Below, piece by piece: positions 1 through 16,415 of a stretch of DNA of 64,000 bases; within the stretch, counting starts at the first letter, position 1; the number at the start of each line of letters is the position of its first letter. The translations under genes were made by a program, and so were the position numbers. This stretch comes from Verrucomicrobiota bacterium (GTDB lineage Bacteria; Verrucomicrobiota; Verrucomicrobiia; Chthoniobacterales; UBA10450), in assembly GCA_003219465.1 (NCBI GenBank), contig QHOX01000162.1:4500-68499 (forward strand). The letters run 5' to 3'. The notes beneath the pieces were generated by a model that did no database searches, was not told the origin of the DNA, and saw nothing but the letters and a program-made list of their open reading frames with translations.

Positions 1-1
1 G

Positions 2-487
2 CCGCTCAACATCCTGGATCTTGGCTGCGGCCCCGGTTACTTCCTCCACCTCTGCCGGATGTTCGGCCACGAAGGCCTGGGGCTCGATCCTGACGACGAA
101 CCTTTCTTCCGCGGCACGACCAATCTTTTTGGCGTTAGCCGCGTCGTCGCGCGAATCAATGCACAAACGCCTTTGCCGGATCTGGGCAAAAAATTCGACC
201 TGGTTACCGCTCATCGCGTTTGTTTCCATCGCGTCGCACGGGACAAAAACGGTGAATGGTTGGAATGGACAGAGGCTGATTGGAAATTTTTTATCAACGA
301 CGTCCGGACGAGATTTCTCAAACCTGACGGGCGGCTCCTCTTGGAATTCAATCGGCGAGCGGACGGCTCGTCATTTTTCACGTCAGGGCTGCGCGAATTT
401 TTTGAATCGCAAGGCGCGCGGATCGTTCGTTGGAAAGCGCTGCTTGCAGCGGGCCCAAATCAGCGTCCGAGCTTCAAACTAGGCTAA
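2..487 (+). CDS. class I SAM-dependent methyltransferase, 5' end outside the window
   Basis: Frame 2 is open from nt 2 and reads PLNILDLGCGPGYFLHLC (SAM-binding motif I, GxGxG). It then joins ORF 59..487. No upstream stop, so the CDS enters from the left edge. Confidence 0.7.
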   Translation, partial: PLNILDLGCGPGYFLHLCRMFGHEGLGLDPDDEPFFRGTTNLFGVSRVVARINAQTPLPDLGKKFDLVTAHRVCFHRVARDKNGEWLEWTEADWKFFINDVRTRFLKPDGRLLLEFNRRADGSSFFTSGLREFFESQGARIVRWKALLAAGPNQRPSFKLG

Positions 488-534
488 ATCGTAGCGACGC
501 TGCGGTGCAATGCCAGTCGGGCTCGGACCGGTGG

Positions 535-566
535 GACAGCGCAGCGCGCTGTCACTTTCCTTTTGG
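535..566 (+). terminator. hairpin GACAGCGC-agc-GCGCTGTC plus T-rich tail; candidate intrinsic terminator
   Basis: Perfect 8-bp inverted repeat 535..542 / 546..553, followed by ACTTTCCTTTTGG. It lies 48 nt after the stop of the methyltransferase. The same palindrome recurs at 10657..10677. Confidence 0.5.
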
Positions 567-698
567 CCCGGCTCTGGTGACTGTCTTTACCAACGGCATC
601 CCGAGCGCTGCGAAGTATCTGGGTCGTCGCGCATCGCCATGACCAGTAATTAAATTGGTCAAAGCATACGAGGTCGGTTCCTCTTAAGCTCGCGAACG

Positions 699-3404
699 CT
701 AACGCTTTTGGTGATGCAGCGACGGGTCGACGACCGCTGCCATCACGGTCTCGTTAGGCAGTTGTTCCGCGCCGAGAAACTGGACGAGGCGCGAGACAAT
801 TGACTGCGGATCCCGCACCAGCGCGGGATAATCGATTTCGATGAATTTCATGTGCCGTGCGGTCCTTAGCCACCGCAGCGTTTCCTCGCGGTGCGCTGTG
901 AGACCGCGCTGTAGTTGCTCGGGGTCGAGTTCGGCACCTTTCGTTCCTAGCCGGTTCACCATCTGGTGTTGTGAGGCAACAACCTCTTCGATTGGCCGGG
1001 TCATAAAAATGACCTTGTAATCATGTTGCAGAGGCATTCTCGGCAGCAGCATGGAGATGCATTTGATTGCGCGGCCTTTAACCGCTTCGTCATCGAGCAG
1101 CTCGGGTCTTTTCCCGATCTGCTTGATCGCTTCCCATTCATAATAGCCGCGCGGGTTATCTGCATCCGCGACGCGTTCTCCGTCGGTCATCAGCGGCATT
1201 CCACCAGCCTCGAGCAACTGCATCATGAGCGATGTGCCCGACCGCGGCAGGCCTGAGACAAGGACGAACGTCTTGCCGGACTTTGTTTCGTCCGCGGGCT
1301 TCGGATCGGGGCGTTCTTTAAGCAGAATCGCGAGTCGCTCGTCCCGTTTCGGAATCTCGGGAAGATCGAATAGTTTCTCGCGCTTCGAGTCCGCGCCCAC
1401 GGAACGCCGGCCACGGCTGCGGGTCAGTCGAAAGACTTCGCTCCGATGGAACTCTGCTTTCTCGCGGTTGCCTCCCTCGCTCTTGTGGATGGTCGCGAGA
1501 TATCGGTGGGCATTTATCATGTCCGGCTGGAAACGCAGCGCGGTTTCAAACGCCACGCTCGCGCGCGCGGTCTCACCGGAACGCGCCAGCGCGACACCGA
1601 GATTGAAATGCGCCAGCGGGAGGCGGTGCAGCAGACTCACTGCCCGTAACGCGCAATCCACCGTCTGCTGGTTGTCGCCGAGTCGGCGATAGACGGTTGA
1701 CAACCCTTGAAAGGCGAGCGCGTTGTCCTCGTCTAGGGCGATTGCTTTTTCGTAAGCAATTTTCGCGTTCTGCCACTGGAGCAAACGGGCATAAGTGTCC
1801 CCGATCTGGATGTAAATTCCTGGCAGTTGCGAATTCATCGCTTCGGCTCTGAGGAGGGCTTGCAAAGCACCACCGAGATCGCCACGCGCGAGTTTGATTC
1901 TTGCCCATAACAGCGTCATCCCAGCCGTGCCCGGCTCCGCACCATCGGCGATAGCGAATAGCACACGTTCCGCCTGCGCCAGATAACCGCCCTGGTAATA
2001 ACAAGCCGCCAGCTGTGTGAGAAACCGATCTTCCCAAGGTCGCCGCCTAACGATCTCTTGCAGTAGCGGCTGGGCCTGGTCGGGCCGATTTTTCCATAGA
2101 TAGGTGCGCGCGACATTGTATTTCGCTTCGATCTCGGCCGACTCCGCCATCTTCTCCTTGTCGGCGCTCGGATCTTCGATGTAACCGAGGGCGGCGAACT
2201 GCTGCATCAATTCGTTAGCTTGTTCACGATCTATCTGCTGGCCCGCTACGTGCATCCCGCATTCACCGGAAAATTTTTCCCAGCTCGGGATCGTCTTCAC
2301 GCTCGGCGGAACCTCGAACGCTTCAAGCAACGGCCGGCCGTCCATATCTTCGCCGATCGGAATGTCAAACAGGGTCAGGACGGTCGGCGCAATATCGATC
2401 AAGCTCGCGCCATAGATGCGTTCGTCCCGCTTGATGCCCGACCCCGCCATTACAAATATTCCATACTGCCGGTGCCAGACCGCCGGGCCGGCTGGCTCGC
2501 GGGGCACGCCGCGGGGACGTTGCGAGCCGGATTCGAAGCCGTGGTCGGAGCAAAGGATCACCGTCGCCTCCGGTCCGGCCAGCTCGAGCAAGCGTTCCAG
2601 CATCATGTCGTGAAAGCGGTACGCGCCCCTAACGACATCTTTGTAGAGCGCGAAATCCTCGTCTTTGATCCAGGGCAGCTTCGGCGGGTGATACGCCATG
2701 AAGGCGTGCGAGAAATGATCGATCCCATCGTAATAGACGGCGGTGAAATCCCACGGCTCGCCTTCCATCAGCGCGGTCGCTACCGCGTGGATGGATGCGT
2801 TATCGCTCAGGACTTTCGCAAATGAAATCAGCCGCTTGTCCTTTTGTTGATCGATCTTGGCCGCATCGGGAATGAAGGGCAGGATATGCGCCTCGGTCAG
2901 TTCGTTAGGGAAAACCTTGAACCGCGCAAGCTTCGGCCCGTTCTCGGGCGGATGGACTGTTCCTTTCGGAATGCTCCAGCCTTTCTCCGGATGGAACTTC
3001 ACTCCGCCAAACGCATTCGTCACGACCGTGCCCTTGATTGGCTCCGCGGGATGACTCGCCCACCAACCAACGATGTTACTCTGCAGACCGCGTTGGGTGA
3101 GAATATTCCAAAGCGCTTTGCATTTGCGCGAAGCGCTGCTGCAGGGGCGCGCGCCACCGTTGATCGGGTCCGGCTCGATGAAGCCGTGGATGCCGTGCTT
3201 ATCGGCAAATTTGCCGGTCGCGACAGAATTCCAGAGCATCGGCGAAAGAATTGGTTGGAGCGTCGCGAGATTGCCCATCACGCCGCGATTGATGAAGGTG
3301 TCGAGGGTCGGCATCAGACCTTCCTCGATCAGCGGAGTGATGTGCTCCCAATCGGCGGCGTCCCATCCGATCAAGAGAACTTTTCGCCGGTAAGCTTCAA
3401 CCAC
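699..3404 (-). CDS. three-domain protein: NPP/alkaline-phosphatase-like domain + TPR repeats + C-terminal sulfotransferase domain
   Basis: 901-aa ORF with a GTG start. N-terminal ~400 aa carry LLIGWDAADW, LSPMLWNSVATGKFADKHG and ILCSDHGF (AlkP-superfamily metal/nucleophile motifs). The middle ~230 aa are TPR-like helical repeats (e.g. AYEKAIALDEDNALAFQGL, ALRFQPDMINAHRYL). The C-terminal ~200 aa carry VLVSGLPRSGTSL (PAPS 5'-phosphosulfate loop) and FMTRPIEEVVAS (3'-phosphate motif). Confidence 0.8.
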   Translation of the reverse strand: MVEAYRRKVLLIGWDAADWEHITPLIEEGLMPTLDTFINRGVMGNLATLQPILSPMLWNSVATGKFADKHGIHGFIEPDPINGGARPCSSASRKCKALWNILTQRGLQSNIVGWWASHPAEPIKGTVVTNAFGGVKFHPEKGWSIPKGTVHPPENGPKLARFKVFPNELTEAHILPFIPDAAKIDQQKDKRLISFAKVLSDNASIHAVATALMEGEPWDFTAVYYDGIDHFSHAFMAYHPPKLPWIKDEDFALYKDVVRGAYRFHDMMLERLLELAGPEATVILCSDHGFESGSQRPRGVPREPAGPAVWHRQYGIFVMAGSGIKRDERIYGASLIDIAPTVLTLFDIPIGEDMDGRPLLEAFEVPPSVKTIPSWEKFSGECGMHVAGQQIDREQANELMQQFAALGYIEDPSADKEKMAESAEIEAKYNVARTYLWKNRPDQAQPLLQEIVRRRPWEDRFLTQLAACYYQGGYLAQAERVLFAIADGAEPGTAGMTLLWARIKLARGDLGGALQALLRAEAMNSQLPGIYIQIGDTYARLLQWQNAKIAYEKAIALDEDNALAFQGLSTVYRRLGDNQQTVDCALRAVSLLHRLPLAHFNLGVALARSGETARASVAFETALRFQPDMINAHRYLATIHKSEGGNREKAEFHRSEVFRLTRSRGRRSVGADSKREKLFDLPEIPKRDERLAILLKERPDPKPADETKSGKTFVLVSGLPRSGTSLMMQLLEAGGMPLMTDGERVADADNPRGYYEWEAIKQIGKRPELLDDEAVKGRAIKCISMLLPRMPLQHDYKVIFMTRPIEEVVASQHQMVNRLGTKGAELDPEQLQRGLTAHREETLRWLRTARHMKFIEIDYPALVRDPQSIVSRLVQFLGAEQLPNETVMAAVVDPSLHHQKR

Positions 3405-3536
3405 AGAGAGACAACGCGGTAGAAAATTTCAGCGCCACACTCAAGTGTGGGGTAGACGATGAGGCAGACTCTCTTCGGCCTGCCCCTGGGAACGATGCCG
3501 TCCTTCACACTAAAACAGGCAGCCGGAAGCCTAGGT

Positions 3537-4235
3537 CTAACTTGCGATTCGCGACCGGCTCTTCCGCCAGGCCAGGAGCCCCACGGCCCCAACCGCAAGC
3601 CAGCCGAGAGAACCCTCTTCGGGTCCCTGTTCATCACTCATATCTTGGCCGTCTTCGCCGGCTCTGGGAATGCCCTGGCCCGCTCTGATCCGTTCGCCGG
3701 GGTCGGCATAAGCGTAGTCGATCAGCTTGAAGGCATTGTTCCTGTCGCACCCAGCCATTCTGACCCGTGCCCACCCGTATTGAGTGCCCGCGCCGCTATT
3801 GAACCCAAAACCGATAAAGCCGATGCCGGGATCCGTCCACGCGCCAATGCAATCAAACGCCATAAAGGCGTAGTAAAAACTCCTCCCAAAGAAAACGGGC
3901 GATATCGTCTGGCCGCGATGCAATTTTGAAGCAAAAGTTTGCTCAACGTAGCGGAATATCCTGTCACCCGCCGAAGCAATTCCAACGATTCTGACCTCGG
4001 CAGCACCGTAGGAATTATGACTCAGCGTAAAGTAATCACCGGGCTGATCCAACTTGAACGTCTTGATCTTATGCACGTTCGGAGGGAATACCTCGTTCAC
4101 AAGGCCCGAATAGTGAATGGCAGCTTCCAACGAGTTACTGCCGGCTAGTGCCGTGGCGGCGCCTGCGGTCGCGTACGCGACCCAGCGGGAATGCGAAACT
4201 TTCGTGGTTTGGCGGCGGGATTGGCGTGTCTTCAT
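3537..4235 (-). CDS. secreted protein with PEP-CTERM-like sorting signal
   Basis: 232-aa ORF. N-terminal signal-like segment WVAYATAGAATALAGSNSLEAA. The C-terminus GPEEGSLGWLAVGAVGLLAWRKSRSR gives a PEP-like motif, a hydrophobic helix and a basic tail. Confidence 0.6.
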   Translation of the reverse strand: MKTRQSRRQTTKVSHSRWVAYATAGAATALAGSNSLEAAIHYSGLVNEVFPPNVHKIKTFKLDQPGDYFTLSHNSYGAAEVRIVGIASAGDRIFRYVEQTFASKLHRGQTISPVFFGRSFYYAFMAFDCIGAWTDPGIGFIGFGFNSGAGTQYGWARVRMAGCDRNNAFKLIDYAYADPGERIRAGQGIPRAGEDGQDMSDEQGPEEGSLGWLAVGAVGLLAWRKSRSRIAS

Positions 4236-4380
4236 ATTGATTACCTCAAGTTGTGCGAGCGAACCCTGAACGTTCGCGGTTTTCCCGTGCGGAAAGAGGG
4301 TCAGGTGGAGCTCCCGGCCTAGACGCCCAACGGACTTAGCGCAGGGACAGAATAGGCAAGCACGCCTGACTTTGCATAGT

Positions 4381-4510
4381 GATGCGTCGCCTAATTTTCG
4401 TGTAGGGCTTCGCCTTATATCGGTTAATCGTTTTGTTGCGCTTCACGACAGCATAAAGCCCCAGCCGAATTACGACCGGGCTTTCCTCACACCCGGGCTA
4501 TGGGCACCGG
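4381..4510 (-). repeat. conserved 3' cassette ('repeat B', copy 1) with hairpin, directly after the stop of the broken S74 gene
   Basis: About 80% identical by eye to 9117..9262. Shared core: TAGGGCT..CGG(T/G)TAATCGTTTTGTTGCGCTTCACG..ATAAAGCCCC.CCGAATTACGACCGGG. In gene sense it folds as AAAGCCC(GG)..(CT)GGGGCTTT followed by ATG/ATC, which is terminator-like. Confidence 0.6.
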
Positions 4511-5559
4511 TTAGCGATTAGTCAGGACCGTTTGCGGCGCTGCCTTGCTCAGTTCAAGGTGTGCGCTCACTTTCTGAAGACCTGTAGTAAGCGCTTCAAT
4601 TTGCTTCTGCTGGTGTGCCGCGATTGCTTGGAAGTCCATCTCCTGCTGTGCCACCGTAGATTTCAGTTCAGTGATCGTCGCCTGCTGTTCTTCCACCTTG
4701 CGGTGCTCTTTGAGAAATTCGTTGAGCAACATTGCGTTCACCGCTTCATAGCGCACGCTGTACGGTCTTCCTTGATCGTCACGGGCCACGAGATCAGGAT
4801 TTACCTTTTCTACTTCCTCTGCCACAAGACCGAATTGTGCAATGCCGGCAGGATCAAGCTCCTTCTTGTAGCGGAACGTGACCGGCTTAAGATCTTCTCC
4901 TTGTAACGATCGGAGGAAAGGACCGTGCCGAGGTGACCGTCGGAATCGATTATCACTCCTACGCCTTCCGCGACTATGGCCCCACTGATGCCGGCCATGT
5001 AGGTGGCGCTTTGCGTTGCAGGATCGCCGATCCGGATCGTGCCCGAGTCGTGATCCCTACCGTGGTTACCAATCATGATGTTGTTATTAGCACCGCCCTT
5101 ACATCTATAACCGGCTTGACGACCTAATGCGATGTTGTTGTTGCCAGTGTAGTTACCGCCGAGCGCACTATGTCCGACGGCGGTGTTGTCGGAGCCGGTC
5201 GCGTTGACGACGAGCGCATGAACACCGATGGCCGTGTTGTTATTGCCGTTGCTGTTGTAAAGGAGTGCTCCAAAACCGGTGGCCGTGTTGGAGCTGCCGT
5301 TGAAGTTGAACCCCCCGAGTGCACCAGCACCGGTGGCCGTGTTGAAGCTGCCGGTTGTGTTGTTGATGAGCGCATTGAAACCGACTGCCGTGTTCCATGC
5401 GCCGAGATTGTTCAAGAGCGCGTCTTCACCGAGGAACGTATTGCTGACGTCGCTGCCGCGGCCTTCTTGACAGACCGCTCGCGCTTGCGGCGAAAGCGCA
5501 AAGCAGGCGAGCGCGAACAGCGCGAACGCGGCATAACTAATATTCGTTGTTGTTTTCAT
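4511..5559 (-). pseudogene. frameshifted paralogue of the S74 fibre-like protein
   Basis: ORFs 4810..5559 and 4511..4825 are in different frames. Together they align with the adjacent 381-aa protein: signal peptide, NTAxG repeats, SSDRYKEK vs SSERFKDD, then an identical VAEEVEKVNPDLVARDDQGRPYSVRYEAVNAMLLNEFLKEH. The segment between the CTCGGCAC and CTTAAG anchors is 33 nt here versus 70 nt in the intact copy. That is net -37 nt, not a multiple of 3. Confidence 0.65.
4705..4891. repeat. 187-nt block nearly identical to 5717..5903 (1 mismatch)
   Basis: Direct comparison shows 4725..4891 = 5737..5903 exactly (167 nt). One mismatch at 4724/5736, then 19 more identical nt. Flanking coding sequence is strongly diverged. 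Confidence 0.9.
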
Positions 5560-5576
5560 CGGTTTATTTCTTTTGG

Positions 5577-6722
5577 TTACTGATTATTTGCAATGGTTTC
5601 CATTACAGGTTTGCTGGTTTCGAGCTGTGCGGTCACTTTCTGTAGTCCCTCGGTAAGCGCTGCAACTTGTTGCTTCAGTTCTTCAACGGTGCGGTGCTCC
5701 TCCAAAAACGCTTTATGCTCTTTGAGAAATTCGTTAAGCAACATTGCGTTCACCGCTTCATAGCGCACGCTGTACGGTCTTCCTTGATCGTCACGGGCCA
5801 CGAGATCAGGATTTACCTTTTCTACTTCCTCTGCCACAAGACCGAATTGTGCAATGCCGGCAGGATCAAGCTCCTTCTTGTAGCGGAACGTGACCGGCTT
5901 AAGCGCCAAAATCGCTTCGCTCGCTTTGTCCATCGGTCGCACATCATCTTTGAATCTCTCTGAGGAAACGATCGTGCCGAGATGGCCATTGCTATCGATG
6001 ATGACACCCACTCCGCCCGCAATGGTCGACCCACTGATTCCGGCAATAAAGGTGTGCTTCTGAGTTCCAACGGTACCGATGCGGATGTGGTTAGACTCGT
6101 CTCCCAACGCAGAGTTACCGATGTCGATATTGTTGTCGCCCTTAACAATCGATGAACCAGCTGAAGCCCCCAATGCGATATTGTTGTGACCCATGACGTT
6201 GCTAAAGAGTGCATTAACCCCTATCGCCGTGTTGTTGTTGCCACCTGTGTTGTAAGTAAGCGCAGTAGTACCGCACGCTGTATTGTTGCTGCCCGTTGTG
6301 TTGTAACCAAGCGCAGCAGCACCGCTCGCTGTATTGGAGCTGCCCGTTGTGTTCGCCTCAAGCGCATCGGTACCGGTGGCAGTGTTGTAAGCGCCGGTTG
6401 TGTTGTCGAGGAGGGCAGCAGCGCCGATTGCGGTATTTTGGTAGCCGGCGGTATTGCTTGAGAGTGCGCCGTCGCCGGTGCCCGTATTGAGGACACCGTT
6501 AAGGTTGTTAGAGAGCACATCCCTGCCGATGGCCGTATTGTTGGCGCCCGGGAACGTTGTAGCCAAAGCGTCTTCGCCTAGGAACGTGTTGCCGCTGCCT
6601 GGGTCGCCGCAACCGTTTTCGCAAACAGCGCAGACTTGCGGTGAAAGCGCAAACCAGGCGAGCGTCAGTGCGATGAGAACTGGCAGAATTGTTGTGTTTT
6701 TGGACTGAGTCAGCGGATTCAT
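5577..6722 (-). CDS. secreted fibre-like protein: YadA-head-like NTAxG repeats + peptidase S74 intramolecular-chaperone (self-cleaving) domain
   Basis: 381-aa ORF. Signal peptide TILPVLIALTLAWFALSPQVCA. Repeats include NNTAIG, NTATG, NTASG, NNTACG, NNTAIGVNAL and NNIALG. These are followed by GHLGTIVSSERFKDDV..LKPVTFRYKK..GLVAEEVEKVNPDLV and a coiled-coil tail, which is the S74 S-(D/E)-R-x-K autoprocessing context. Confidence 0.75.
   Translation of the reverse strand: MNPLTQSKNTTILPVLIALTLAWFALSPQVCAVCENGCGDPGSGNTFLGEDALATTFPGANNTAIGRDVLSNNLNGVLNTGTGDGALSSNTAGYQNTAIGAAALLDNTTGAYNTATGTDALEANTTGSSNTASGAAALGYNTTGSNNTACGTTALTYNTGGNNNTAIGVNALFSNVMGHNNIALGASAGSSIVKGDNNIDIGNSALGDESNHIRIGTVGTQKHTFIAGISGSTIAGGVGVIIDSNGHLGTIVSSERFKDDVRPMDKASEAILALKPVTFRYKKELDPAGIAQFGLVAEEVEKVNPDLVARDDQGRPYSVRYEAVNAMLLNEFLKEHKAFLEEHRTVEELKQQVAALTEGLQKVTAQLETSKPVMETIANNQ
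5717..5903. repeat. partner of the 187-nt near-identical block at 4705..4891
   Basis: See 4705..4891. Confidence 0.9.
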
Positions 6723-6900
6723 GGTTCTTCCTCTCTTCTTCCCCGCTGAGTTGATTTTCTGCGGTTGAGGGGTCCGAAAGAGGCGACGAATCTAGCGGGG
6801 GAAGTCCTCCGCCTGATTCAGATCCGTTTAGCGAGGCGGATTTTGAAAAAATCTCACCTACTCGTCAAGAAGAAATGTCAGGCGTCGCCCAATTTGCGTA
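6723..6900 (-). promoter_or_regulatory. conserved promoter + 5' leader cassette ('repeat A', copy 1) upstream of the S74 fibre gene
   Basis: In gene sense: TTGACG (6869..6864), 17 nt, CAAAAT (6846..6841). A ~115-nt leader follows that is shared with copies at 8968..9116 and 10463..10615, then GGAAGAAGAGAGGAAG and ATG. Confidence 0.6.
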
Positions 6901-6990
6901 AGCTATGCAAAATGTGCACGTGTTAGCGTTCAGTCTGGGCCGTTTGCACTGCGGCTTGTTCAGTTTACCGGGCCGTCACCGTCTGACGGG

Positions 6991-8448
6991 TCATGCCGCT
7001 GGCTTCTTCTTCGGGATCACGATGGCGTCCGGCTCTTGGTTTTTGGCTTCTCTCAGTTGCTCACGCTTCGCAAAAGCCGGCTCTATGATGTATTTTTTGA
7101 GGTTCTCACCGTCCAACAGGTCTTCCTTCGATTCATATTTGCGGGTAGGCAATACCCAGTGAAAAGAGTTCTGCGAATCAACAAGCATCGCAAAGGGACG
7201 CGGGTCTACACTGATATCAATGATGGGAATGTAGGGGATTTTGAACTGCTTGACCGTAGCCTCTAATTCTAAAGGGGTTGATTTTGGACTGGTCAAATCC
7301 GCAATGACAAACATGCTCATTCCCGCCAGTGTCTGTACCGTCTCGGTATAGTCCTTATCGGTGGGGCGATCAAAATCAAACACTATAGGCAACAGATCGA
7401 ACTGCCGCAGGCCCTCCCTTAACCCGTCGAGCACGGACCTGCGTTGAGGATCAGAGAACCTTCCAAGAATCAGTACGCCCTTCGATGTGATTGTGTTGAT
7501 CACATTCCGAATTTTGGTATTGTTCAATATCAGGTAAATGAACTGGCCGACTTCCAGGTCATCTACGGTGACGACAGGTTCACCCTCCTTTGTGATGACT
7601 AAGTTATGTTGGACAGTGCCCACCAAGGTCACGTTCCAGGCAGAAGCTCCGTAAGTACGACAGCCGGTAATCGTGGCACTGGTGAAGTCGGTTTCCACCA
7701 AACCGGTACGGCTCAAATCGGCGTCGGTTAGATCAGCACTGGTTAGGTTGGCACCCCGTAGGTCGACATCGGCTAGGATGGCGCCGCGCAGCTTAGCCTT
7801 GCTCAGGTTGGCACGGAGCAGGTTGGCATCGCTCAGGCTGGCATCGTTCAGATTGGCACCGCTCAGGTTGGCACCGCTCAGGTTGGCACCGCTCAGGTAG
7901 GCACCGCTCAGGTCGGCACCGATCAGCTTGGCATCGCTCAGGTTGGCACCGATCGGGTTGGCACGGCTCAGGTTGGCACCGCTCAGGTCGGCACCGCTCA
8001 GGTCGGCATCGCTGAGATTGGCATTGCTCAGGTTGGCATCGCCCAGGTTGGCACGGCGCAGGTTGGCACCGCTCAGGTTAACACGGCTCAGGTTGGCACC
8101 GCTCAGGTTGGCACGGCTCAGGTCGGCACGGCTGAGGTTAGCATCGCTCAGGCTGGTACCGTTCAGGTTGGCACGGCTCAGGTTGGCACTGCTCAGGTAG
8201 GCGCCGTTCAGGTTGGCACCGCTCAGGTTGGCATCGCTGAAGTTGGCATCGCTGAGGTTGGCACGGCTCAGGTTGGCATCGCTCAGGCTGGTACCGCTCA
8301 GGTCGGCACGGCTCAGGTTGGTACCGCTCAGGTTGGCATTAAACAGCTCGGCACCGCCCAAGTCCGGCCTAGTAGCATTCTCTAATCGCCACTTATTCCA
8401 CTGCTCTACACCCTGCTTGAGTATTTTGAGATGTTCTTCATTTGCCAT
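6991..8448 (-). CDS. pentapeptide-repeat protein with uncharacterised C-terminal alpha/beta (TIR/NDT-like?) domain
   Basis: 485-aa ORF with a strong SD (GAGAGGAG) 8 nt upstream of the ATG. About 45 A(D/N)LSx pentapeptides span aa ~30-255. There is no signal peptide. The C-terminal module (aa 323-485) reads VLILGRF.., LPIVFDFD, MFVIADLTSPKSTPLELE. Confidence 0.85.
   Translation of the reverse strand: MANEEHLKILKQGVEQWNKWRLENATRPDLGGAELFNANLSGTNLSRADLSGTSLSDANLSRANLSDANFSDANLSGANLNGAYLSSANLSRANLNGTSLSDANLSRADLSRANLSGANLSRVNLSGANLRRANLGDANLSNANLSDADLSGADLSGANLSRANPIGANLSDAKLIGADLSGAYLSGANLSGANLSGANLNDASLSDANLLRANLSKAKLRGAILADVDLRGANLTSADLTDADLSRTGLVETDFTSATITGCRTYGASAWNVTLVGTVQHNLVITKEGEPVVTVDDLEVGQFIYLILNNTKIRNVINTITSKGVLILGRFSDPQRRSVLDGLREGLRQFDLLPIVFDFDRPTDKDYTETVQTLAGMSMFVIADLTSPKSTPLELEATVKQFKIPYIPIIDISVDPRPFAMLVDSQNSFHWVLPTRKYESKEDLLDGENLKKYIIEPAFAKREQLREAKNQEPDAIVIPKKKPAA
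7683..8361. repeat. 15-nt periodic coding repeat (GCTCAGGTTGGCACC-type units) encoding the pentapeptide array
   Basis: Dozens of near-identical 15-mers visible on the plus strand: gctcaggttggcacc, gctcaggtcggcacc, gctcaggttggcatc. Confidence 0.9.
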
Positions 8449-8532
8449 GGCCTCAAGCTCCTCTCATTAAAATACGGCACACTGATACTTGTTTCAAAAT
8501 GGGCCAATCCTTTGACTTTCAAGATCGGGCGC

Positions 8533-8967
8533 TTACTGCGGGATTGATGGTTTATTAATCCACACGGTTTCCACAAAAACAGGATTCCCAGGTCGTGCAC
8601 AGCTAGTGTCACAGCACCCAAATGTCGAAGAATGCACAACGGTAGCGGCCCCGGTAGCCCGACGCGTCCATATCTGGTAGCCATAGGCAAAGCACCCTCC
8701 ATTATCATCGTCGGTGACGGTACAGGTAAGGTTGTTAGCACCCTGGACCAGCCTTGAGGTGAGATCAAAGGTTCCTGTCTCCCCAAAATTTAACGTCAGG
8801 ACTACCGTGCCATTCAACGTGCACGTCATATGGTCATCTACACCTGTGACGGTGATACCAACGTGACTCGCTCCAAGTTGAACGGTGGTTTCGGCGCGAA
8901 GATCGTGTGTGGTGATGGTGGACAGCAACGCACCTGTAGCGACTAACAGAATAAGCTTCGTATACAT
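8533..8967 (-). CDS. small secreted hypothetical protein (Cys-containing, beta-rich)
   Basis: 144-aa ORF. Signal peptide MYTKLILLVATGALLSTITTHDLRA. It sits directly behind leader cassette copy 2 and 84 nt upstream of the pentapeptide gene. No recognisable family. Confidence 0.55.
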   Translation of the reverse strand: MYTKLILLVATGALLSTITTHDLRAETTVQLGASHVGITVTGVDDHMTCTLNGTVVLTLNFGETGTFDLTSRLVQGANNLTCTVTDDDNGGCFAYGYQIWTRRATGAATVVHSSTFGCCDTSCARPGNPVFVETVWINKPSIPQ

Positions 8968-9116
8968 AATTCCTTTCTTTTTTCCGCTACGTTGATTCTG
9001 CGATTCGCGGGTCCGGAAGGGGCGAAGAACCTAGCGGGGGAAGTCCTCCGCCTGATTCAGATCCGTTTAGCGAGGCCGATTTTGAAAAAATCTCATCTGC
9101 TCGTCAAGAAGAAATG
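8968..9116 (-). promoter_or_regulatory. conserved promoter + 5' leader cassette ('repeat A', copy 2)
   Basis: TTGACG (9107..9102), 17 nt, CAAAAT (9084..9079), then the conserved leader, AAAGAAAGGAA and ATG at 8967. Confidence 0.6.
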
Positions 9117-9262
9117 TCAGGCATCGCTAAATTTGCATATAGGGCTCGTCTGACTCGGGTAATCGTTTTGTTGCGCTTCACGGCGAGCAGGATAAAGCCC
9201 CGCCCGAATTACGACCGGGGGCCTCCGTTGATAGCCCGAGACATGAGCATCAGTTAGCGATT
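9117..9262 (-). repeat. conserved 3' cassette ('repeat B', copy 2)
   Basis: Aligns with 4381..4510, including the GCCCCCGG..CGGGCGGGGCTTTATC hairpin and a TTAGCGATT stop-codon-like junction. No intact gene ends here. Confidence 0.55.
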
Positions 9263-9369
9263 TGAGCATGGCTCGCTTGGCAGCGTCAGAGGGAAACTGG
9301 AAGCTGCGTGATCCACGCATCGAGGTTTATGGTACAAATACTACGTTGCGAGTGTGATCCCCTCGTGGG

Positions 9370-10462
9370 CTACTTCTCCGTTGGCGTGCCTCGAAAGCAA
9401 CGCGGAATATATGGAAAACCTTCCGTGATGAAACAGCAGTAGATTATCTGGTTCAAATCAGGGGAGTAGCAGACCTTGCCGTTGCATTGGTCGAGGTGGT
9501 CGTCTCCCGTGCCTATCGTGTACTCGTAGTCGTTGACAAAAGTACCGAGAGGGAACTTCGTATCATCGGGCTCCCCCCACTCGCTGCGTAGCGAGCCTTC
9601 CTTAATTTCCACCCGGACTTCATGGTGATCAGCTCACCGCCTTGCTTGAGTTGACCGTACTTCCAATAGACAGGAAATCCGTCAAACGCCCAACCCACGA
9701 GAGTCATTCGTTTAGGAAGGCATGGCTCTTGGACTTGAGCGATCGCGGCGGCAGTCTGGGTCGTAAGCTTGTGATAGTGGTAGAGCCCGCCCTTCTGGGT
9801 GTGCGCGATGTGATTGTCCATGTCGAGCTGGGCCTCTTCGCAGCACATCCACCAAGGGCGGATGTTGCCCCCTGCGTTTAGTTGCCATCTCACTTTCTGG
9901 GGGGCAATCTGCTGCGGTTCCAACCGCGAAGTTGTCGATGCAATCGACGTTCTTTGCGCCGCCGCAGGCTTTCGATGCCGTTTGCGTCCAGATGGCGACA
10001 TCCTCGGGATCGAACGGTACGCCATTGAGGGCGACCCCGAAGCGCTGTGGTCGTGTCGAGAATGGCTCCGGACATACCGTGACGGGGGTCGTGGTAGCCG
10101 CCTCACTGGGGTTGAGAGGTATTCTGAAGTGGTACTCATGCGTGGCGATTGGGTCGTGATAGGACGTATCAACGCAATGATTGGGAATCCCATTGGAGTC
10201 GATATGACGGTAGGCGTTGTCCGTCCAAATACTGCGCACGGACTCCAGCGTATTGCCTTTCCCCTCCTTCAACCAGATCTCGCCCTCGGGGCACTTGATG
10301 CTGGGGCCGATATGCATGCCGAGACACGGGACTGGCTCGAGCTCTTGGGGGGCGGTCCTTGGGGGCCGCGAGAATGATCGTTGGCAAAAATCCAAAGCAA
10401 GCAAGCACAATAGTGACGAGAACTGTCAGGATTGTTTGTTTAAGATGAATCAACGAATTCAT
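9370..10462 (-). pseudogene. YHYH-domain secreted protein, broken by three frameshifts
   Basis: Four ORF pieces in frames 1/0/2/0 (10462.., 10410.., 10193.., 9612..) together give a full YHYH-type protein. The pieces read: signal peptide MNSLIHLKQTILTVLVTIVLACFGFL; then GIPNHCVDTSYHDPIATHEYHFRIP; then NHIAHTQKGGLYHYH..LVGWAFDGFPVY; then FVNDYEYTIGTGDDHLDQCNGK. The frame changes sit at G6 (10347..10352), G6 (9899..9904) and a G3 run near 9610. Confidence 0.7.
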
Positions 10463-10615
10463 TGGTTCTTCCTTTCTTTTCCCCCGCTACATTGATTCTG
10501 CGATTCGCGGGTCCGGAAGGGGCGAAGAACCTAGCGGGGAAATGTCCTCCGCCTGATTCAGATCCGTCTAGCGCCGTCGAGTTTGGAAAAAATTTTGCCG
10601 GTTTGTCAAGCGAGG
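10463..10615 (-). promoter_or_regulatory. conserved promoter + 5' leader cassette ('repeat A', copy 3, -10 degenerate)
   Basis: TTGACA (10609..10604), 17 nt, CCAAAC. The leader is about 90% identical to copy 2 over ~100 nt. Confidence 0.5.
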
Positions 10616-10633
10616 AAACTTATGGAGTGGTAG

Positions 10634-10677
10634 GGACGCCACACACTGCGGCGTCCGGACAGCGCAGCGCGCTGTCC
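10634..10677. repeat. twin palindromic hairpins (GGACGCC-9nt-GGCGTCC and GGACAGCGC-agc-GCGCTGTCC) 3' of the sulfotransferase gene
   Basis: Inverted repeats read directly. The second is the same palindrome as 535..553. Confidence 0.7.
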
Positions 10678-10683
10678 CCACCC

Positions 10684-11460
10684 TCACAATTTCCAATCTG
10701 AGCAATCCCAGCCCAGCATCTGTTCAACCTCCGCGATGTCTTCTGCGAACAGGTGGTAAAGGAAAACGCGTTCCTCCCAGTTCATCCCCCGTTCGTATGG
10801 CACGATGTTTCTGTCTTTGTTGCGCACCGACCGCAGAGGTTTGCAGCCAAGGAATGAGAGAATCGAGGTGAGGGTTTCGCGCCGCTTTGCTTTGAAGTTT
10901 TCGAACTTTACCGCCTTTACGTGCTCACGCGGAAAAAATTTGAAGAGGCGCTCGAGTTGGCGTCCGTAAAAACCACGATCGATGTAGGCAAAACGCCGGG
11001 CATCAACGGGAGGCGCACCGCTGATGCGCGTTTGCTCTTCGCGCACGGCGTCGAAAAAATCCAGCGGTTCCCGGCCTTTGAACCGTTGCATGTTCCAATG
11101 CGCAAACGCGCGCTCGATCGGGTTACGCAGAATGATCAATAATTTGATTTTCGGATTGTAATTCCAGATCCGTTCCGCCGCCGGCTCGTGATAAAGATAA
11201 CTGGGTGTGCAATCGCCAGCGATCATTGACTGAGTAAGGGGCCGATAGTGTTTGTGCAGTTGCTCGTAATCGGGCTCGGAAACGAACAGCGCATCGTTAT
11301 CGAAGAAATGGATTTCCTGCTTATCGCCCATGCAGATATCGGGATGTCTGCTCAGGAAGTAGTGCAGCGCTGTCGTGCCGGATTTTTGCGCGCCGGCCAG
11401 AATGAAGTCGAGCCGGTCAATTTTGCGGCGCTTGCTTCGAAACATTGGGGAAATGTACAT
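10684..11460 (-). CDS. sulfotransferase family protein
   Basis: LDFILAGAQKSGTTALHYFL (5'-PSB loop) and LIILRNPIERAFAHW (3'-PB motif). Start placed at the ATG at 11460 (MYISPMFRSKRRK). The longer ORF to 11553 overlaps the divergent S46 gene. Confidence 0.8.
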   Translation of the reverse strand: MYISPMFRSKRRKIDRLDFILAGAQKSGTTALHYFLSRHPDICMGDKQEIHFFDNDALFVSEPDYEQLHKHYRPLTQSMIAGDCTPSYLYHEPAAERIWNYNPKIKLLIILRNPIERAFAHWNMQRFKGREPLDFFDAVREEQTRISGAPPVDARRFAYIDRGFYGRQLERLFKFFPREHVKAVKFENFKAKRRETLTSILSFLGCKPLRSVRNKDRNIVPYERGMNWEERVFLYHLFAEDIAEVEQMLGWDCSDWKL

Positions 11461-11559
11461 CGCGAAGCCTGTAGGGGAAGCTGACAGCTTCTCCTGCAAA
11501 CTGGCCTCGAAACGAAGCACGTAGTTGTGGCCTTTGTGCGTGCCCTCTATCATTCGCGC

Positions 11560-13674
11560 ATGTACAAGTGGTTTTGCCTGCAGTTTCGCTGTTCAGTTTT
11601 TCTCTTTGTTGTCGGAATAACTACCTCGGCATTAGCCGATGAAGGCATGTGGCTCTTCAACGCGCCGCCGCTGAAACAGCTCAAGGAAAAATATCAGTTC
11701 GAACCGTCGCCGCAGTGGCTCGAGCATCTGCAAAAATCCAGTGTCCGATTCAATTCAGGCGGGAGCGGTTCATTCGTTTCGGCAAATGGGCTCGTGATCA
11801 CAAATCACCACGTCGGGGCGGACACATTGCAGAAGATGGGCGACGCCCAACACAATTATCTGCGGGACGGTTTCTACGCGAAAACGCAGGCCGATGAGAT
11901 CAAATCCACAGATCTGGAGCTGAATGTGCTGATGTCGATCGAAGATGTGACGGCGCGCGTCACGAGCGCGGTAAAACCAGGCATGACGAGCGATCAGGCT
12001 TCCAGCGCGCGCAACGCTGCCATCGCTGCGATTGAAAAGGAAAGCAAAGAGAAAACCGGGCTCCGATCGGACGTGGTCACGCTGTATCAAGGTGGCGCAT
12101 ACCATCTTTACCGATACAAACGCTACGATGATGTGCGCCTGGTCTTCGCGCCGGAGCAGCAAATGGCTTTTTTCGGCGGTGACCCCGACAATTTCGAGTA
12201 TCCCCGTTACGATCTCGATATCTGTCTTTTCCGCGTTTATGAAAATGGCCAGCCGGCAAAGATCGAGCACTTTCTCAAATTCAATTCCAACGGCCCAAAC
12301 GATGGTGAGCTGACTTTTGTCAGTGGGAGCCCGGGGAAAACAGATCGGCAACTCACCTTGGATGAGATGGCCGACACGCGCGATCGATATCTGCCGTACG
12401 TGCTGAATATGTTTTACCGGCGCGAAGTGCTGGAGTCCGCGTACAGCGCACGCTCATTCGAGAACGCACGGAAGGCGCGCGAAGATCTGTTCGGTGATCA
12501 AAACAATCGGAAACGTTATGACGGTTATCTGGCCGGACTGCTTGATCCGCAAATCTGGTCGGCGCTGCAAGCGCGGGAGAAAAAGCTGCGCGACGCAATT
12601 GCACGCGATTCGAAATTCAAATCCACACTTTCTGCTTACGACGGGATCAAACGCGCCCAGGCTGAGATCGCGAAGAATGCGCCCGTGTACAATTACCTCG
12701 AGCAAGAGAGGCCAGTTACGGTTGGTTACCGCGGACCGCGAGCGCTTTCCGGAAATCTTTTCAAATATGCGCGCCTGCTACTCCGGGCTGCGGACGAGCG
12801 CACAAAGCCGAACGGCGAAAGAATCCCTACTTTTCGCGACAGCGCGCGCGAGTCATTGGAACTGGATCTCTTTTCCACAGAACCGATTTACGACGACTAT
12901 GAAATTTTGCGACTCACTAACTCGCTCACGGATTTCGCCTCGCAATTCGGGGCAGAAAATCCGATGGTGCAGAAGGTGCTCGCCGGAAAATCACCGCACG
13001 CGCGCGCGGTGGAACTTGTGACCGGCACGAAACTCAAGGACGTGTCGGTGCGCAAAGATCTCTACATTAAAGACGTCGCTGCGTTGCAGGCCGCGCACGA
13101 TCCGATGATCGATCTCGCCCGCATGATCGATGGGCCGGCGAGACAAGCACGAAAAATTTACGACGCGCAGGATGAAATCAAAAAACAGGCCTATGCGGAA
13201 ATTGCAAAGGCGCGGTTTGCGATGGAGGGCGCGAGCACTTACCCGGATGCGACTTTCACGCTACGGCTCTCTTACGGAACAGTACGAGGATATGAGCAGG
13301 ATGGAAAACAGGTTCCCGCGTTCACCGATTTTGCCGGTTTGTATCAGCGCGCCTCCGAGCACGACAACCAGCCGCCATTCAATCTGCCACAGCGTTGGAT
13401 CGACAAGAAAGCGAATCTAAATCTCTCAACGAAATTCAATTTCGTCTCGGATGCCGATATTATTGGCGGCAACAGCGGCAGTCCGGTGGTGAACAAGGCG
13501 AACGAATTCGTCGGCATCATTTTCGACGGCAACATTCAATCGCTGGTGCTCGATTGCATTTACACAGACACGCAAGCCCGTGCCGTGTCTGTCGATTCTG
13601 CCGCAATCATCGAAGCACTGCGCAAAGTTTACGACGCAGGCGCGCTGGCAGATGAGTTGGAAGGTCGGAAATAA
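11560..13674 (+). CDS. S46 family dipeptidyl-peptidase (DPP7/DPP11-like)
   Basis: Signal peptide, then ADEGMWLF, GGSGSFVSANGLVITNHHVG and IIGGNSGSPVVN (catalytic Ser). About 700 aa. ATG at 11560 preferred over GTG at 11527. Confidence 0.9.
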   Translation: MYKWFCLQFRCSVFLFVVGITTSALADEGMWLFNAPPLKQLKEKYQFEPSPQWLEHLQKSSVRFNSGGSGSFVSANGLVITNHHVGADTLQKMGDAQHNYLRDGFYAKTQADEIKSTDLELNVLMSIEDVTARVTSAVKPGMTSDQASSARNAAIAAIEKESKEKTGLRSDVVTLYQGGAYHLYRYKRYDDVRLVFAPEQQMAFFGGDPDNFEYPRYDLDICLFRVYENGQPAKIEHFLKFNSNGPNDGELTFVSGSPGKTDRQLTLDEMADTRDRYLPYVLNMFYRREVLESAYSARSFENARKAREDLFGDQNNRKRYDGYLAGLLDPQIWSALQAREKKLRDAIARDSKFKSTLSAYDGIKRAQAEIAKNAPVYNYLEQERPVTVGYRGPRALSGNLFKYARLLLRAADERTKPNGERIPTFRDSARESLELDLFSTEPIYDDYEILRLTNSLTDFASQFGAENPMVQKVLAGKSPHARAVELVTGTKLKDVSVRKDLYIKDVAALQAAHDPMIDLARMIDGPARQARKIYDAQDEIKKQAYAEIAKARFAMEGASTYPDATFTLRLSYGTVRGYEQDGKQVPAFTDFAGLYQRASEHDNQPPFNLPQRWIDKKANLNLSTKFNFVSDADIIGGNSGSPVVNKANEFVGIIFDGNIQSLVLDCIYTDTQARAVSVDSAAIIEALRKVYDAGALADELEGRK

Positions 13675-13689
13675 CGCCGAGCGTGAACC

Positions 13690-14100
13690 ATGAGCACTGA
13701 AGAAAATAGAAAGCTATTACTCAGCGTCTTCGATGCGATCGAACAACGCGACGATCAGCGATTCTCGGAACTCTTACATTCGGATTTCGAAATTCACTGG
13801 CCCGAGTCACTTCCGTTCGGCAAAAGCAAAGCTAGAACTTGGAGCGACACGTGGAACCCACTTCAGGCAACCAAGAGAGAGAGGAGAATGGATGCGCGCG
13901 TTGTGGCTGCTAATGAGGACGAAGTAGTCGTTCTTTGGCGACAGCGCGGATCAAGCCCAGAAGGGCAACAGTTTGATGGAGAGGTTCTGGGTCTTTATCA
14001 AGTCCGCGATGGGAAGCTCGCACGCGCACAAATGTTTTATTTTGATACCGTCGCGGTAGCCAGTTTCTTGAACAAGGCGATGACGCAATCCGAAAAATGA
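13690..14100 (+). CDS. NTF2-like / SnoaL-type small protein
   Basis: 136 aa. The N-terminal NRKLLLSVFDAIEQRDDQRFSELLHSDFEIHWP pattern is typical of SnoaL-like folds. Motif-level evidence only. Confidence 0.5.
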   Translation: MSTEENRKLLLSVFDAIEQRDDQRFSELLHSDFEIHWPESLPFGKSKARTWSDTWNPLQATKRERRMDARVVAANEDEVVVLWRQRGSSPEGQQFDGEVLGLYQVRDGKLARAQMFYFDTVAVASFLNKAMTQSEK

Positions 14101-14154
14101 AGTCCAATCTGTGCTAAGACCGGGGCCAACGCAGTGCGCTCTCAGTTACTCAGT

Positions 14155-14943
14155 TCAGAGTTCTTTCAGCAGCTTCTTCCAGCGCGCCCAAGCTTCGTCG
14201 CGAGCTTTTCGGTCAGCTTCGCGAAAATTTGGGTTAGCCGGATCACCTGAGCGCATAAAGCCGTGACCAGCGCCTTTGTAGATCACCGGCTCATATTTTT
14301 TGCCAGCGGCTTTCATTAGCTCTTCCGCTTTTGGAATAGTTGCGTTCACGCGCTCATCGTTCTCGCCGTAAAAACCGTAAACAGGACACGCAATATTTTT
14401 CACCTTGTCAGCGGACTCTGGCGGAGCCCCGTAAAACGAATAGGCTGCGTTCAATTTTGGGTTTTCGTTCGCGTAGGTAAACGCCCACCCCCCGCCGCGG
14501 CAAAATCCACAAACAGCCAGAGTGCCGTTGCATGCCGGGATTTTCAGGGCGTAATCTGCCGTCGCGTCCAGAACCGATTTTACCTGCTCGTCGGTCACCG
14601 CAGAGATCGCTTTGCGCGCTCCGTCAGCATCTTCAAACTTTTCGCCATTGAGAAAATCGGGCGCAATGGCGATAACGCCATTCTCAGCCAACTGATCACA
14701 CATGCTGCGAAGCCAATCGGTCAGGCCAAAGATTTCCTGAACGACCAGAATAGCTGGCGCTTTGTCCTTGCGCTCCGGATAGACAACGAACGCCTTGATG
14801 GTGCGCTCGCCCGATTTGATATCGACCCATTCGCCATGACGCGGCGAGTTATTCAGGCGGTCCTTGCCGAAATCCTTGTATTCTTGGGCCGGCAGCGATT
14901 GTGCGAGGCAACCAACGGCAAGTACTAACAGAAAGCGCTTCAT
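14155..14943 (-). CDS. dienelactone hydrolase family protein (secreted)
   Basis: Signal peptide MKRFLLVLAVGCLAQSLPA, then VVQEIFGLTDW, VCGFCRGGGWAF (nucleophile elbow) and YKGAGHGF. Confidence 0.8.
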   Translation of the reverse strand: MKRFLLVLAVGCLAQSLPAQEYKDFGKDRLNNSPRHGEWVDIKSGERTIKAFVVYPERKDKAPAILVVQEIFGLTDWLRSMCDQLAENGVIAIAPDFLNGEKFEDADGARKAISAVTDEQVKSVLDATADYALKIPACNGTLAVCGFCRGGGWAFTYANENPKLNAAYSFYGAPPESADKVKNIACPVYGFYGENDERVNATIPKAEELMKAAGKKYEPVIYKGAGHGFMRSGDPANPNFREADRKARDEAWARWKKLLKEL

Positions 14944-14975
14944 TTGATGGAATGAGATTCGATGTTCGGTGTCGG

Positions 14976-15381
14976 CTAGGCCGTTGAAGGTGTTACCGCC
15001 GTCGATTTTCGGCAGAAAATTCCGTCAACACTCCAGCGGCCGGGGCCATAGAACACAACGAACAAGAAGAACCAGCAATAAAAAACGGCTAGTTCGCCCT
15101 TGTTGGCAATTGGGAAAAAGCTGCGCGGCGCGTGAACCATGAAATAGGCCACCGCCATCGTGCCGCTCGAGATGAATGCAGCGAGCCGCGTAGCCAAAGG
15201 CAATCAAAAATCCGCCGACGAGACAAATCCAACCGCAAAGCTGAAGCAGCGGTGCATTGGAGCCCGGCATCCCGCCAAACATGCCGAAGAGTAACTGGCC
15301 GCCGTGGCTGGCGAAATTCAAGCCAACGATCAGACGCATGATGCAATAAACCGGGTCAGTAAACCGATTGAGAGAGTTCAT
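14976..15381 (-). pseudogene. DoxX family membrane protein, single frameshift
   Basis: ORF 15025..15381 starts DoxX-like (MRLIVGLNFASHGGQLLFGMFGG..VGGFLIAFG) and then degenerates. ORF 14976..15203, in another frame, supplies LATRLAAFISSGTMAVAYFMVHAP..GPGRWSVDG. The junction lies at about 15185..15205. Confidence 0.65.
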
Positions 15382-16367: not shown

Positions 16368-16415
16368 ACAAAACTAATTCGTGTCGCTAAAACGAAATGC
16401 GCGGGTAATAAAGCC

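Follow-up and report, generated by a model that had tools for sequence, protein, structure and literature searches.

Outside Qnr and MfpA, the biology of the pentapeptide-repeat superfamily is mostly unknown. Qnr, MfpA and AlbG form a cytoplasmic right-handed quadrilateral beta-helix, have a fixed length of ~180-220 aa, dimerise via a C-terminal helix and carry no globular enzyme-like domain. Thoeris consists of a TIR signal generator, ThsB, and of ThsA, which has a SLOG receptor domain. Surveys of conflict systems count pentapeptide repeats as superstructure-forming or sensor modules and name them alongside TIR (PMC7159879, PMC8195603, PMC10853773). In a 2021 pentapeptide review, SopA is described as the first pentapeptide protein of more than one domain to have its structure solved, and a keyword search of the review gave no mention of TIR or Rossmann-type fusions (PMC8145042). 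Here we describe a 485-aa protein encoded in a 64,000-nt stretch of Verrucomicrobiota DNA (contig QHOX01000162.1, positions 4,500 to 68,499; hereafter 'the window'), in which the same kind of beta-helix is followed by a C-terminal alpha/beta module. An original prediction, made from the sequence alone, had already recognized a repeat protein with such a module, and this observation is confirmed. What is new is a domain family that, by its predicted fold and the positions of its conserved residues, appears to belong to the TIR/NDT-like structural class and sits on a pentapeptide scaffold; its function is one that we infer. We propose, with a probability of about 0.42, that the protein is a single-chain conflict (immune-type) protein, in which a variable beta-helix would recognize a target and a constant module would act on a nucleotide.

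We modelled the module with AlphaFold both separately (aa 265-485; 38 homologues, mean predicted local distance difference test score (pLDDT) 81) and within the full-length protein (45 homologues, pLDDT 91.4, predicted TM-score (pTM) 0.78). In both models five strands alternate with helices (b-a-b-a-b-a-b-a-b-a), and the module is predicted to be a three-layer alpha/beta, Rossmann-like domain of the flavodoxin-like type. In the full-length model, the strands of the core span aa 324-329, 353-358, 380-384, 406-411 and 436-438 (b1 to b5), and the helices span aa 334-349, 368-377, 391-398, 420-428 and 441-470 (a1 to a5). The hydrophobic segments that had been picked out by eye are indeed model strands, VLILGR being b1, LPIVFD b2 and FVIAD (380-384) b3. 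It also proved correct that the module is a separate C-terminal domain, but its conserved part begins at about aa 265 (W271, D296, Q302 and F303 are invariant) and not at aa 323 as had been supposed.

Conservation was calculated over 144 diverse representatives drawn from clusters at 50% identity. W271, L326, G329, F331, R336, L340, P354, L374, D384, E394 and Y438 are 100% invariant, and R330, F357, D358, F359, D366, E369, T370, T386, P388, S390 and P392 are conserved at 90-99%, with R330, E369, S390 and P392 within 97-99%. The module is very strongly constrained, and its invariant residues cluster after strand 1 and after strand 3. Positions after these same two strands define the TIR-DrHyd-SLOG class (PMC9503650). 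After strand 1 the module has G329 (100%), R330 (99%), F331 (100%) and R336 (100%), and the conserved residues after strand 3 are D384, T386, P388, S390, P392 and E394, although E394 falls on the Glu of the DNPH1 sequence GYELG only in a statistically unsupported hidden Markov model (HMM) register. The motif S387-x-x-S390-x-P392-x-E394-L-E396, which had been noticed by eye, is present; E394 is invariant in 144/144 representatives, but E396, which had been paired with E394, is Gln in 111/144. E394 falls in the first helical turn following strand 3, the place at which NDT and DNPH1 carry their catalytic Glu. Given the strand/helix alternation in both models and structural matches that include TIR and DNPH1, the module fits the TIR/DrHyd/SLOG class by its predicted fold and by the positions of its conserved residues, homology to any single member family not being demonstrated.

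These structural matches were obtained with Foldseek. Against the PDB there was one match at E<=1e-3, with others between 1e-3 and 1e-2, and all were three-layer flavodoxin-like folds: a cyanobacterial flavodoxin domain, the plant TIR domains of Roq1, RPS4 and RRS1, SARM1, MdaB, PurE and human DNPH1. The best superposition was with DNPH1, an enzyme of the nucleoside 2-deoxyribosyltransferase (NDT, 'DrHyd') superfamily (TM-score 0.75-0.77 by target length, root-mean-square deviation 3.0-3.8 A, ~133 columns). The top named matches in a library of viral models were deoxyribosyltransferases, and receiver domains were also found among the PDB and viral matches. The DNPH1/NDT enzymes share with the module the pattern [DE]-x-T-x-P-x(0-1)-S-x(3-5)-E after strand 3, the score of which is no better than that of shuffled sequences, and presumably also the b1-a1-b2-a2-b3-a3-b4-a4-b5-a5 order with roughly the same lengths. 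They differ in that the module has G-R-F after strand 1 and several extra conserved acidic residues, and in that NDT enzymes are small and stand-alone whereas the module is fused to a beta-helix. TIR domains are alike in fold class, in an acidic residue in the helix after strand 3, in architectural slot and in being a frequent genomic neighbour. However, the module has neither the (F/Y)-(I/L)-S-(Y/H) motif of strand 1 nor the S-x-W-V-x-x-E motif, and the presumed catalytic Glu of the neighbouring TIR proteins lies about one helical turn further along (+13 from the L-T that ends strand 3, vs +9 in the module; hand count). The TIR/NDT-like resemblance claimed in the original prediction thus holds for the fold, with TIR and DNPH1 as best structural matches, but not for sequence homology (hhalign probabilities below 1%, HMM scores like those of shuffled sequences).

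The prediction that the domain could not be assigned to a named family was borne out, since scans with Pfam, NCBIfam and PADLOC gave zero matches for the last 185-221 aa alone. Neither the whole protein nor the module matched any system-protein model of PADLOC-DB v2 at E<=1. Pfam searches of 38 family members, even at E<=10, gave nothing relevant and no TIR, flavodoxin or receiver family, and sequence searches of the PDB, both with the single sequence and with a profile, gave chance-level matches only. No significant match was obtained with the TIR profiles PF13676 (TIR_2), PF01582 and PF08937.

The module nevertheless defines a very large and widespread domain family over many phyla. A search with the C-terminal part alone found 1,831 clusters at 90% identity, and a profile search of 1.8 billion representatives gave 4,279 clusters at 50% identity (E<=1e-3), 2,044 of them with E<=1e-30. 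Almost without exception, the matches listed have the module at their C-terminus, behind pentapeptide repeats. Proteins of ~240 aa (P0001 and others) that seemed to be stand-alone modules, and so a second architecture, were rejected as gene-call artefacts, because the cap and repeats lie just upstream in another frame (a frameshifted repeat region). A unit of ~3.4 kb with such a frameshifted cap-repeat-module gene is tandemly duplicated in one long-read metagenome contig (L084, nt 2497-3285 and 5872-6720). We collected 80 loci from GTDB species genomes, which belong to Chloroflexota (mostly Anaerolineales), Acidobacteriota, Bacteroidota, Gemmatimonadota, Desulfobacterota, Cyanobacteria, Firmicutes and Proteobacteria. 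In several different phyla the module is 75-83% identical to that of the window protein, which indicates horizontal transfer. The gene was found on four plasmids, and the family was not found in phage genomes.

The closest relatives of these proteins form a separate family of 712 clusters (examples P0388-P0507), in which the cap and repeats are followed by a TIR_2 domain. The two cap consensus sequences, MANEEQLaILKQGVeVWNkWReeNp in the TIR family and MANEEHLKILKQGVEQWNKWRlENai in the module family, are almost identical (MANEE(Q/H)L.ILKQGV..WN.WR), and the families are also alike in their variable beta-helix, their size range and their single C-terminal alpha/beta domain. They differ in that the C-terminal domain of the TIR family is recognizable as TIR_2/ThsB_TIR, and in the linker. 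For example, the gene at nt 425-1936 of locus L027 encodes the same cap and repeats with TIR_2 at aa 364-484 (E 7e-21). Four paralogues lie on one strand within nt 1-4719 of that locus: a repeat-TIR gene cut by the contig end, a cap-repeat-TIR gene and two cap-repeat-module genes, with a gap of 6 nt between the cap-repeat-TIR gene and the first cap-repeat-module gene. Locus L052 shows the same pairing of TIR and module. One scaffold thus carries either a bona fide TIR domain or the module in the same C-terminal slot, and the two are interchangeable there. In addition, 2 of 147 representatives (P0206 and P0263) are fusions of an N-terminal TIR_2 with repeats and the module. The cap-repeat-TIR_2 proteins are annotated only as 'TIR domain/pentapeptide repeat protein', and full-text literature searches found no description of the module domain or of the paired families.

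Cap-repeat-TIR genes also form tandem arrays of four to ~10 genes (L086, nt 6700-20100; L087, nt 8001-12688; L088, nt 1392-6079). These directly adjoin type I restriction-modification operons (HsdR/S/M), and a gene for a NACHT NTPase follows ~2 kb past the array; the whole looks like a multigene immune locus, so far unstudied. We looked for module genes hidden in these three arrays and found none. Module genes, unlike the genes of the TIR family, are mostly solitary.

The repeat part of the window protein matches PF00805 with E=2.8e-78, the only Pfam family found in a scan of the whole protein, and places it among the pentapeptide repeat proteins. The repeat unit has the consensus (N/D)-L-S-(G/D/R)-A, and 47 consecutive units are in register (aa 29-263, where ~45 units at aa ~30-255 had been predicted), one 'NPIGA' unit being the sole break in the pattern. 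In the DNA the repeat appears as a 15-nt period with 35.9 copies and 82% match. The full-length model shows an uninterrupted beta-helix from ~aa 29 to ~aa 290, with one strand per unit and pLDDT 93-98 apart from a single dip to 68 at aa 201-210. Ahead of it, most module proteins among the matches listed carry the cap MAN.EHL.ILKQGV..WN.WR, in which W17 and R21 are invariant. By inspection, with no signal-peptide predictor run, the predicted lack of a signal peptide holds, because the N-terminus is hydrophilic and is modelled as two helices; we take the protein to be cytoplasmic.

The length of the repeat domain is highly variable. Across the family it ranges from 44 to 464 aa, and close relatives have 69-139 aa compared with ~235 aa here. 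The window protein's own 90%-identity cluster holds five independent assemblies of the 485-aa form, together with shorter forms of 335, 364, 370, 380, 385 and 415 aa (within P0536-P0550). Clean, in-frame gaps of 30-150 aa (6-30 repeat units) are all that sets these apart from the 485-aa form. All gaps fall within the repeats, with lengths that are multiples of five residues, and the remainder of the proteins is 95-100% identical. The variants may reflect either real repeat-number polymorphism or collapse in short-read assembly, since collapse of DNA with a 15-nt period would also stay in frame. Whole-unit insertions and deletions among near-identical proteins are as expected of a fast-changing recognition part.

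This variation bears on the model of the original prediction, in which the beta-helix, by mimicking DNA, would bait a DNA-binding protein of an invader and the module would then cleave nucleotides. MfpA and Qnr do act through DNA-like shape and charge, as described in the pentapeptide review (PMC8145042), and the repeat domain is net negative both here (-6 over 236 aa) and in 84% of 180 family members. However, the charge is mild, with a family mean of about -0.03 per residue, and the extreme variation in helix length, which reaches 30-150 aa even between proteins of 95-100% identity, speaks against any single DNA-like geometry. The protein also falls far below the NCBIfam equivalog cut-offs of both families (Qnr, 83 vs 240 bits; MfpA, 67 vs 360), and with 485 aa and an extra globular domain it differs from the repeat-only proteins of ~180-220 aa found there. 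We therefore regard the DNA-mimic bait as quite unlikely.

The genes around the module were surveyed in the 80 loci. TIR_2 was the commonest Pfam family among the 150 nearest flanking open reading frames (ORFs; 9/150), and PADLOC matches among the flanking ORFs included ThsB-like, SAVED_TIR and bSEFIR. With a clean TIR HMM, TIR genes were found in 12/80 loci, and eight of them are immediately adjacent to the module gene and co-directional, with gaps of 6-424 nt. Within these 16-kb loci of TIR-rich phyla, TIR genes occupy 8/145 adjacent positions vs 10/775 other positions (Fisher p=0.003). An all-against-all comparison of ~1,000 flanking ORFs gave no conserved operon partner, the best being a generic ABC ATPase in 8/80 loci, which fits a self-contained unit. 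Type I restriction subunits were present in 4-5 of the 80 loci. On a Vibrio plasmid resembling an integrative conjugative element (ICE), a TIR gene and a macro-domain gene lie ~0.8 kb upstream of the module gene, separated from it by one hypothetical gene. A Chlorohelix plasmid carries the module gene among giant genes with FGE/SUMF1 domains (one with a TIR domain), AAA ATPases, DUF4231 and a PIN toxin. Both of these plasmid settings are rich in conflict genes. DUF4231, which we take to be a membrane domain linked to SLOG/TIR conflict systems, occurs near module genes on two unrelated replicons (L085, nt 7268-7723, directly upstream in a complete genome; L082, nt 17894-18627). In locus L045 (nt 5547-14859), a TIR protein, a second TIR-profile protein that is CAP12-like by eye only, the repeat-module gene and two proteins with TIR and FGE-sulfatase domains are encoded on the same strand.

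The adjacent TIR genes raise the alternative that the module is a non-catalytic receptor for a nucleotide or second messenger, or an oligomerization domain, much like ThsA's SLOG domain or TIR domains that serve as scaffolds; in that case the beta-helix would provide the output, for example by binding and blocking a DNA-handling enzyme, or a partner TIR protein would do so. Within the TIR-DrHyd-SLOG class, some versions are inactive and serve as sensors (PMC9503650). In favour of a receptor, the TIR genes that are adjacent and co-directional in 8/80 loci are ThsB-like, the fusions that hold a true TIR besides the module are easier to understand if the two domains have different jobs, and the absolute invariance of a few polar residues equally suits ligand binding. 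The resemblance to Thoeris extends to the module's membership of SLOG's broad structural class and to the ThsB-like genes that adjoin it in a minority of loci. However, most loci, including the window, have no TIR gene or other obvious signal generator or effector nearby, and the protein has no ThsA-type effector domain (SIR2, macro or transmembrane) and no PADLOC match to ThsA. Moreover, the module shares its slot with a TIR_2 domain whose catalytic-type ...SDWVEHE... motif is intact by inspection in the L027 protein, which argues for equivalent output roles, and a pentapeptide helix that varies so much in length would hardly serve as a fixed effector. Taking both sides together, we consider a receptor role rather unlikely.

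A role in conflict, as we propose for the single-chain protein, is supported because the cap-repeat scaffold carries a true TIR_2 domain in the sister family, because TIR genes are enriched among the neighbours and because TIR fusions exist. In the scheme that we favour, the beta-helix of variable length would be the recognition or scaffold part, and the constant module, structurally of the TIR/DrHyd(NDT)/SLOG class, would deliver an output directed at nucleotides. A nucleotide, of NAD type or deoxynucleotide type, may bind in a crevice made by G329-R330-F331/R336 and D384...S390...E394, and cleavage of an N-glycosidic bond, with E394 as the key carboxylate, would be the most likely reaction. 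TIR and NDT enzymes have active sites that are completed across subunits, and by analogy the module would probably act after target-induced self-association. The identity of the ligand, the catalysis, the trigger, the oligomerization and the immune phenotype are all parts that we infer.

Several observations weigh against this proposal. The conserved residues are placed in one crevice or pocket from their secondary-structure positions only, and the acidic residues D358, D366, E369, D384 and E394 could also belong to a metal-dependent enzyme or to a site for binding alone. The Foldseek E-values are weak (~1e-3) and similar for flavodoxins, MdaB and PurE, so that the fold alone does not single out an N-glycosidase. 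When the module was compared by hhalign with 13 TIR_2 domains (from neighbour genes and the fusions P0206 and P0263), the probability was 0.4-0.8%; there was likewise no significant match to the NDT/DNPH1 profile (PF05014), and the probability against 93 DNPH1 sequences was 0.1-0.8%. These values remained below 1% both with a shallow module profile and with a profile of 144 sequences; TIR and DNPH1 themselves were weakly aligned by hhalign around their Glu regions (E 0.004). The module HMM repeatedly picks one register on DNPH1 (viaDitnpk.ssplelqa / vvAEVTQPSlGVGYELG), which puts D384/T386/P388/S390/E394 on DNPH1 E93/T95/P97/S98/E104, but its score of ~0 bits is inside the range of shuffled controls. 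The last of these residues, E104, is the DNPH1 nucleophile. Because the alignment did not beat the shuffled controls, homology to DNPH1, which a by-eye alignment had suggested, is not claimed. As for genomic context, TIR genes are absent within 8 kb in 85% of the surveyed loci, and the enrichment of adjacent TIR genes is relative to a within-locus background and not a genome-wide one. The neighbours of the gene in the window itself are a small secreted protein, an adhesin-like protein with an S74 chaperone domain, a YHYH protein, a sulfotransferase, an S46 peptidase, a dienelactone hydrolase (DLH) and Ku, with no defence genes among them. The link to conflict systems drawn in the original prediction gains support from the TIR slot of the sister family, the adjacent TIR genes and the TIR fusions, but not from the ordinary neighbours in the window.

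These neighbours, with their ordinary metabolism and surface proteins, would suit a housekeeping or regulatory pentapeptide protein outside conflict, with the module as a dimerization or cofactor-binding domain of flavodoxin-like or CheY-like type. Many cyanobacterial pentapeptide proteins have unknown function. The missing PADLOC match and the flavodoxins, MdaB and receiver domains among the Foldseek matches agree with this alternative, and D384, with which strand 3 ends, and the ...P...E-L behind it are similar, by eye only, to the phospho-acceptor region of receiver domains. However, by inspection the module does not have the acidic pair after strand 1 that is typical of receiver domains, and the Pfam scans at E<=10 gave no flavodoxin or receiver family. 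The patchy and variable context, the plasmids, the ICE-like element and the high identity across phyla are features of a mobile accessory gene, and the family has its TIR association and slot equivalence. A housekeeping role thus appears quite unlikely.

If the proposed conflict function is true, a domain found in thousands of protein clusters from many bacterial phyla, now labelled 'pentapeptide repeat-containing' or 'hypothetical', would gain a nucleotide-directed effector function, with TIR and NDT enzymes as its relatives by fold and position, and pentapeptide beta-helices would more generally serve bacterial immunity as variable recognition modules. A broader idea, which we rate as somewhat unlikely, is that the module proteins and their TIR sister proteins together form a large class of single-chain immune receptors, in which the helix recognizes as LRR, TPR and WD40 repeats do in NLR-type proteins and the module is a fourth TIR/DrHyd/SLOG branch acting as a death or signalling effector. 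The paired families, with TIR or the module on the same scaffold, would be a natural experiment for effector exchange on a sensor scaffold, and repeat-number differences among near-identical proteins would suggest a simple route to diversify recognition. In practical terms, the family is a candidate for defence-system catalogues and for Pfam.

The features of the gene are listed in Table 1.

Table 1. Positions of the gene, its parts and signals, and the repeated cassette in the window
Feature	Position (nt)	Strand	Remarks
Whole gene	6991..8448	-	485 codons plus stop, ATG start; exact match to GenBank PYK24322.1, 'hypothetical protein', soil Verrucomicrobiota metagenome-assembled genome
Promoter-like site, TTGAAA-17 nt-TATTTT	8469..8497	-	Consensus match only; inside the 84-nt gap to the preceding ORF
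Putative ribosome-binding site, GAGAGGAG	8458..8465	-	9 nt before ATG; read from sequence
N-terminal cap, aa 1-28 (MANEEHLKILKQGVEQWNKWR...)	8365..8448	-	Two helices in the model, aa 4-11 and 14-23
47 pentapeptide units, aa 29-263	7660..8364	-	Continuous right-handed beta-helix
Last irregular coils and two linker helices, aa 264-323	7480..7659	-	Helices aa 298-309 and 311-323; conserved with the module
Alpha/beta core, aa 324-470, no named family	7039..7479	-	AlphaFold models, Foldseek
Loop after strand 1, G329-R330-F331...R336	7441..7464	-	Conservation in 144 representatives
Loop and helix start after strand 3, D384-x-T386-x-P388-x-S390-x-P392-x-E394	7267..7299	-	Candidate site for catalysis or ligand binding
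C-terminal tail, aa 471-485, and stop codon	6991..7038	-	Basic, poorly conserved
Repeated cassette, ~110-144 nt	6757-6900, 8996-9139, 10484-10591	-	Copies 84-98% identical

The wider tail region (aa 451-485) has a net charge of +4. The gap to the preceding ORF (8533-8967) is exactly 84 nt, as had been stated for the small secreted-protein gene. We considered a functional link through co-transcription with this cassette-driven upstream gene and rejected it, as the neighbour is kept in no related locus and the module gene has a promoter-like site and a ribosome-binding site of its own. The 64-kb window contains zero TIR genes and zero further copies of the module. Among the neighbours, the S46 peptidase clusters with Candidatus Udaeobacter sequences, and the Ku-domain gene (15525-16367, minus strand; PF02735, E 1.7e-46), ~7 kb away, is ordinary non-homologous end-joining equipment.

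The C-terminal coding part had been thought A/T-rich, and this holds modestly: nt 6991-7656 have 48.9% GC vs a window mean of 54.8% (sd 2.7%, 490-nt windows), and 0.8% of 490-nt windows lie below 48.5%. The contrast with the module is exaggerated by the repeat region, which has 62.8% GC. However, GC at third codon positions (GC3) is only slightly low, 0.60 vs 0.62-0.69 in the large housekeeping ORFs compared. Because GC3 is near normal, the low GC is poor evidence of recent import, and a foreign origin on grounds of base composition was rejected.

The original prediction had placed the gene in an island of repeated promoter cassettes. Three copies of the cassette are real, but they precede three other minus-strand genes and not the gene at 6991-8448. 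The three copies share a 22-nt core, GGATCTGAATCAGGCGGAGGAC, without a mismatch, which would not be expected by chance. Each copy lies just upstream of another secreted-protein gene (5577-6722, 8533-8967 and 10169-10462 / 9712-10410) and contains a promoter-like TTGACG-17-CAAAAT; an Rfam scan of the window, cassette included, found no family. The cassette could be a shared promoter and 5' leader for a co-regulated set of surface proteins. In the same region there is a 188-nt direct repeat with 99% identity (4704-4891 and 5716-5903), and a second copy of the C-terminal S74-chaperone-type part of the adhesin-like gene 5577-6722 lies downstream of the paralogous gene 4810-5559, in a reading frame of its own (ORF 4511-4825), which points to a pair of surface-protein genes that are frameshifted or recombining.

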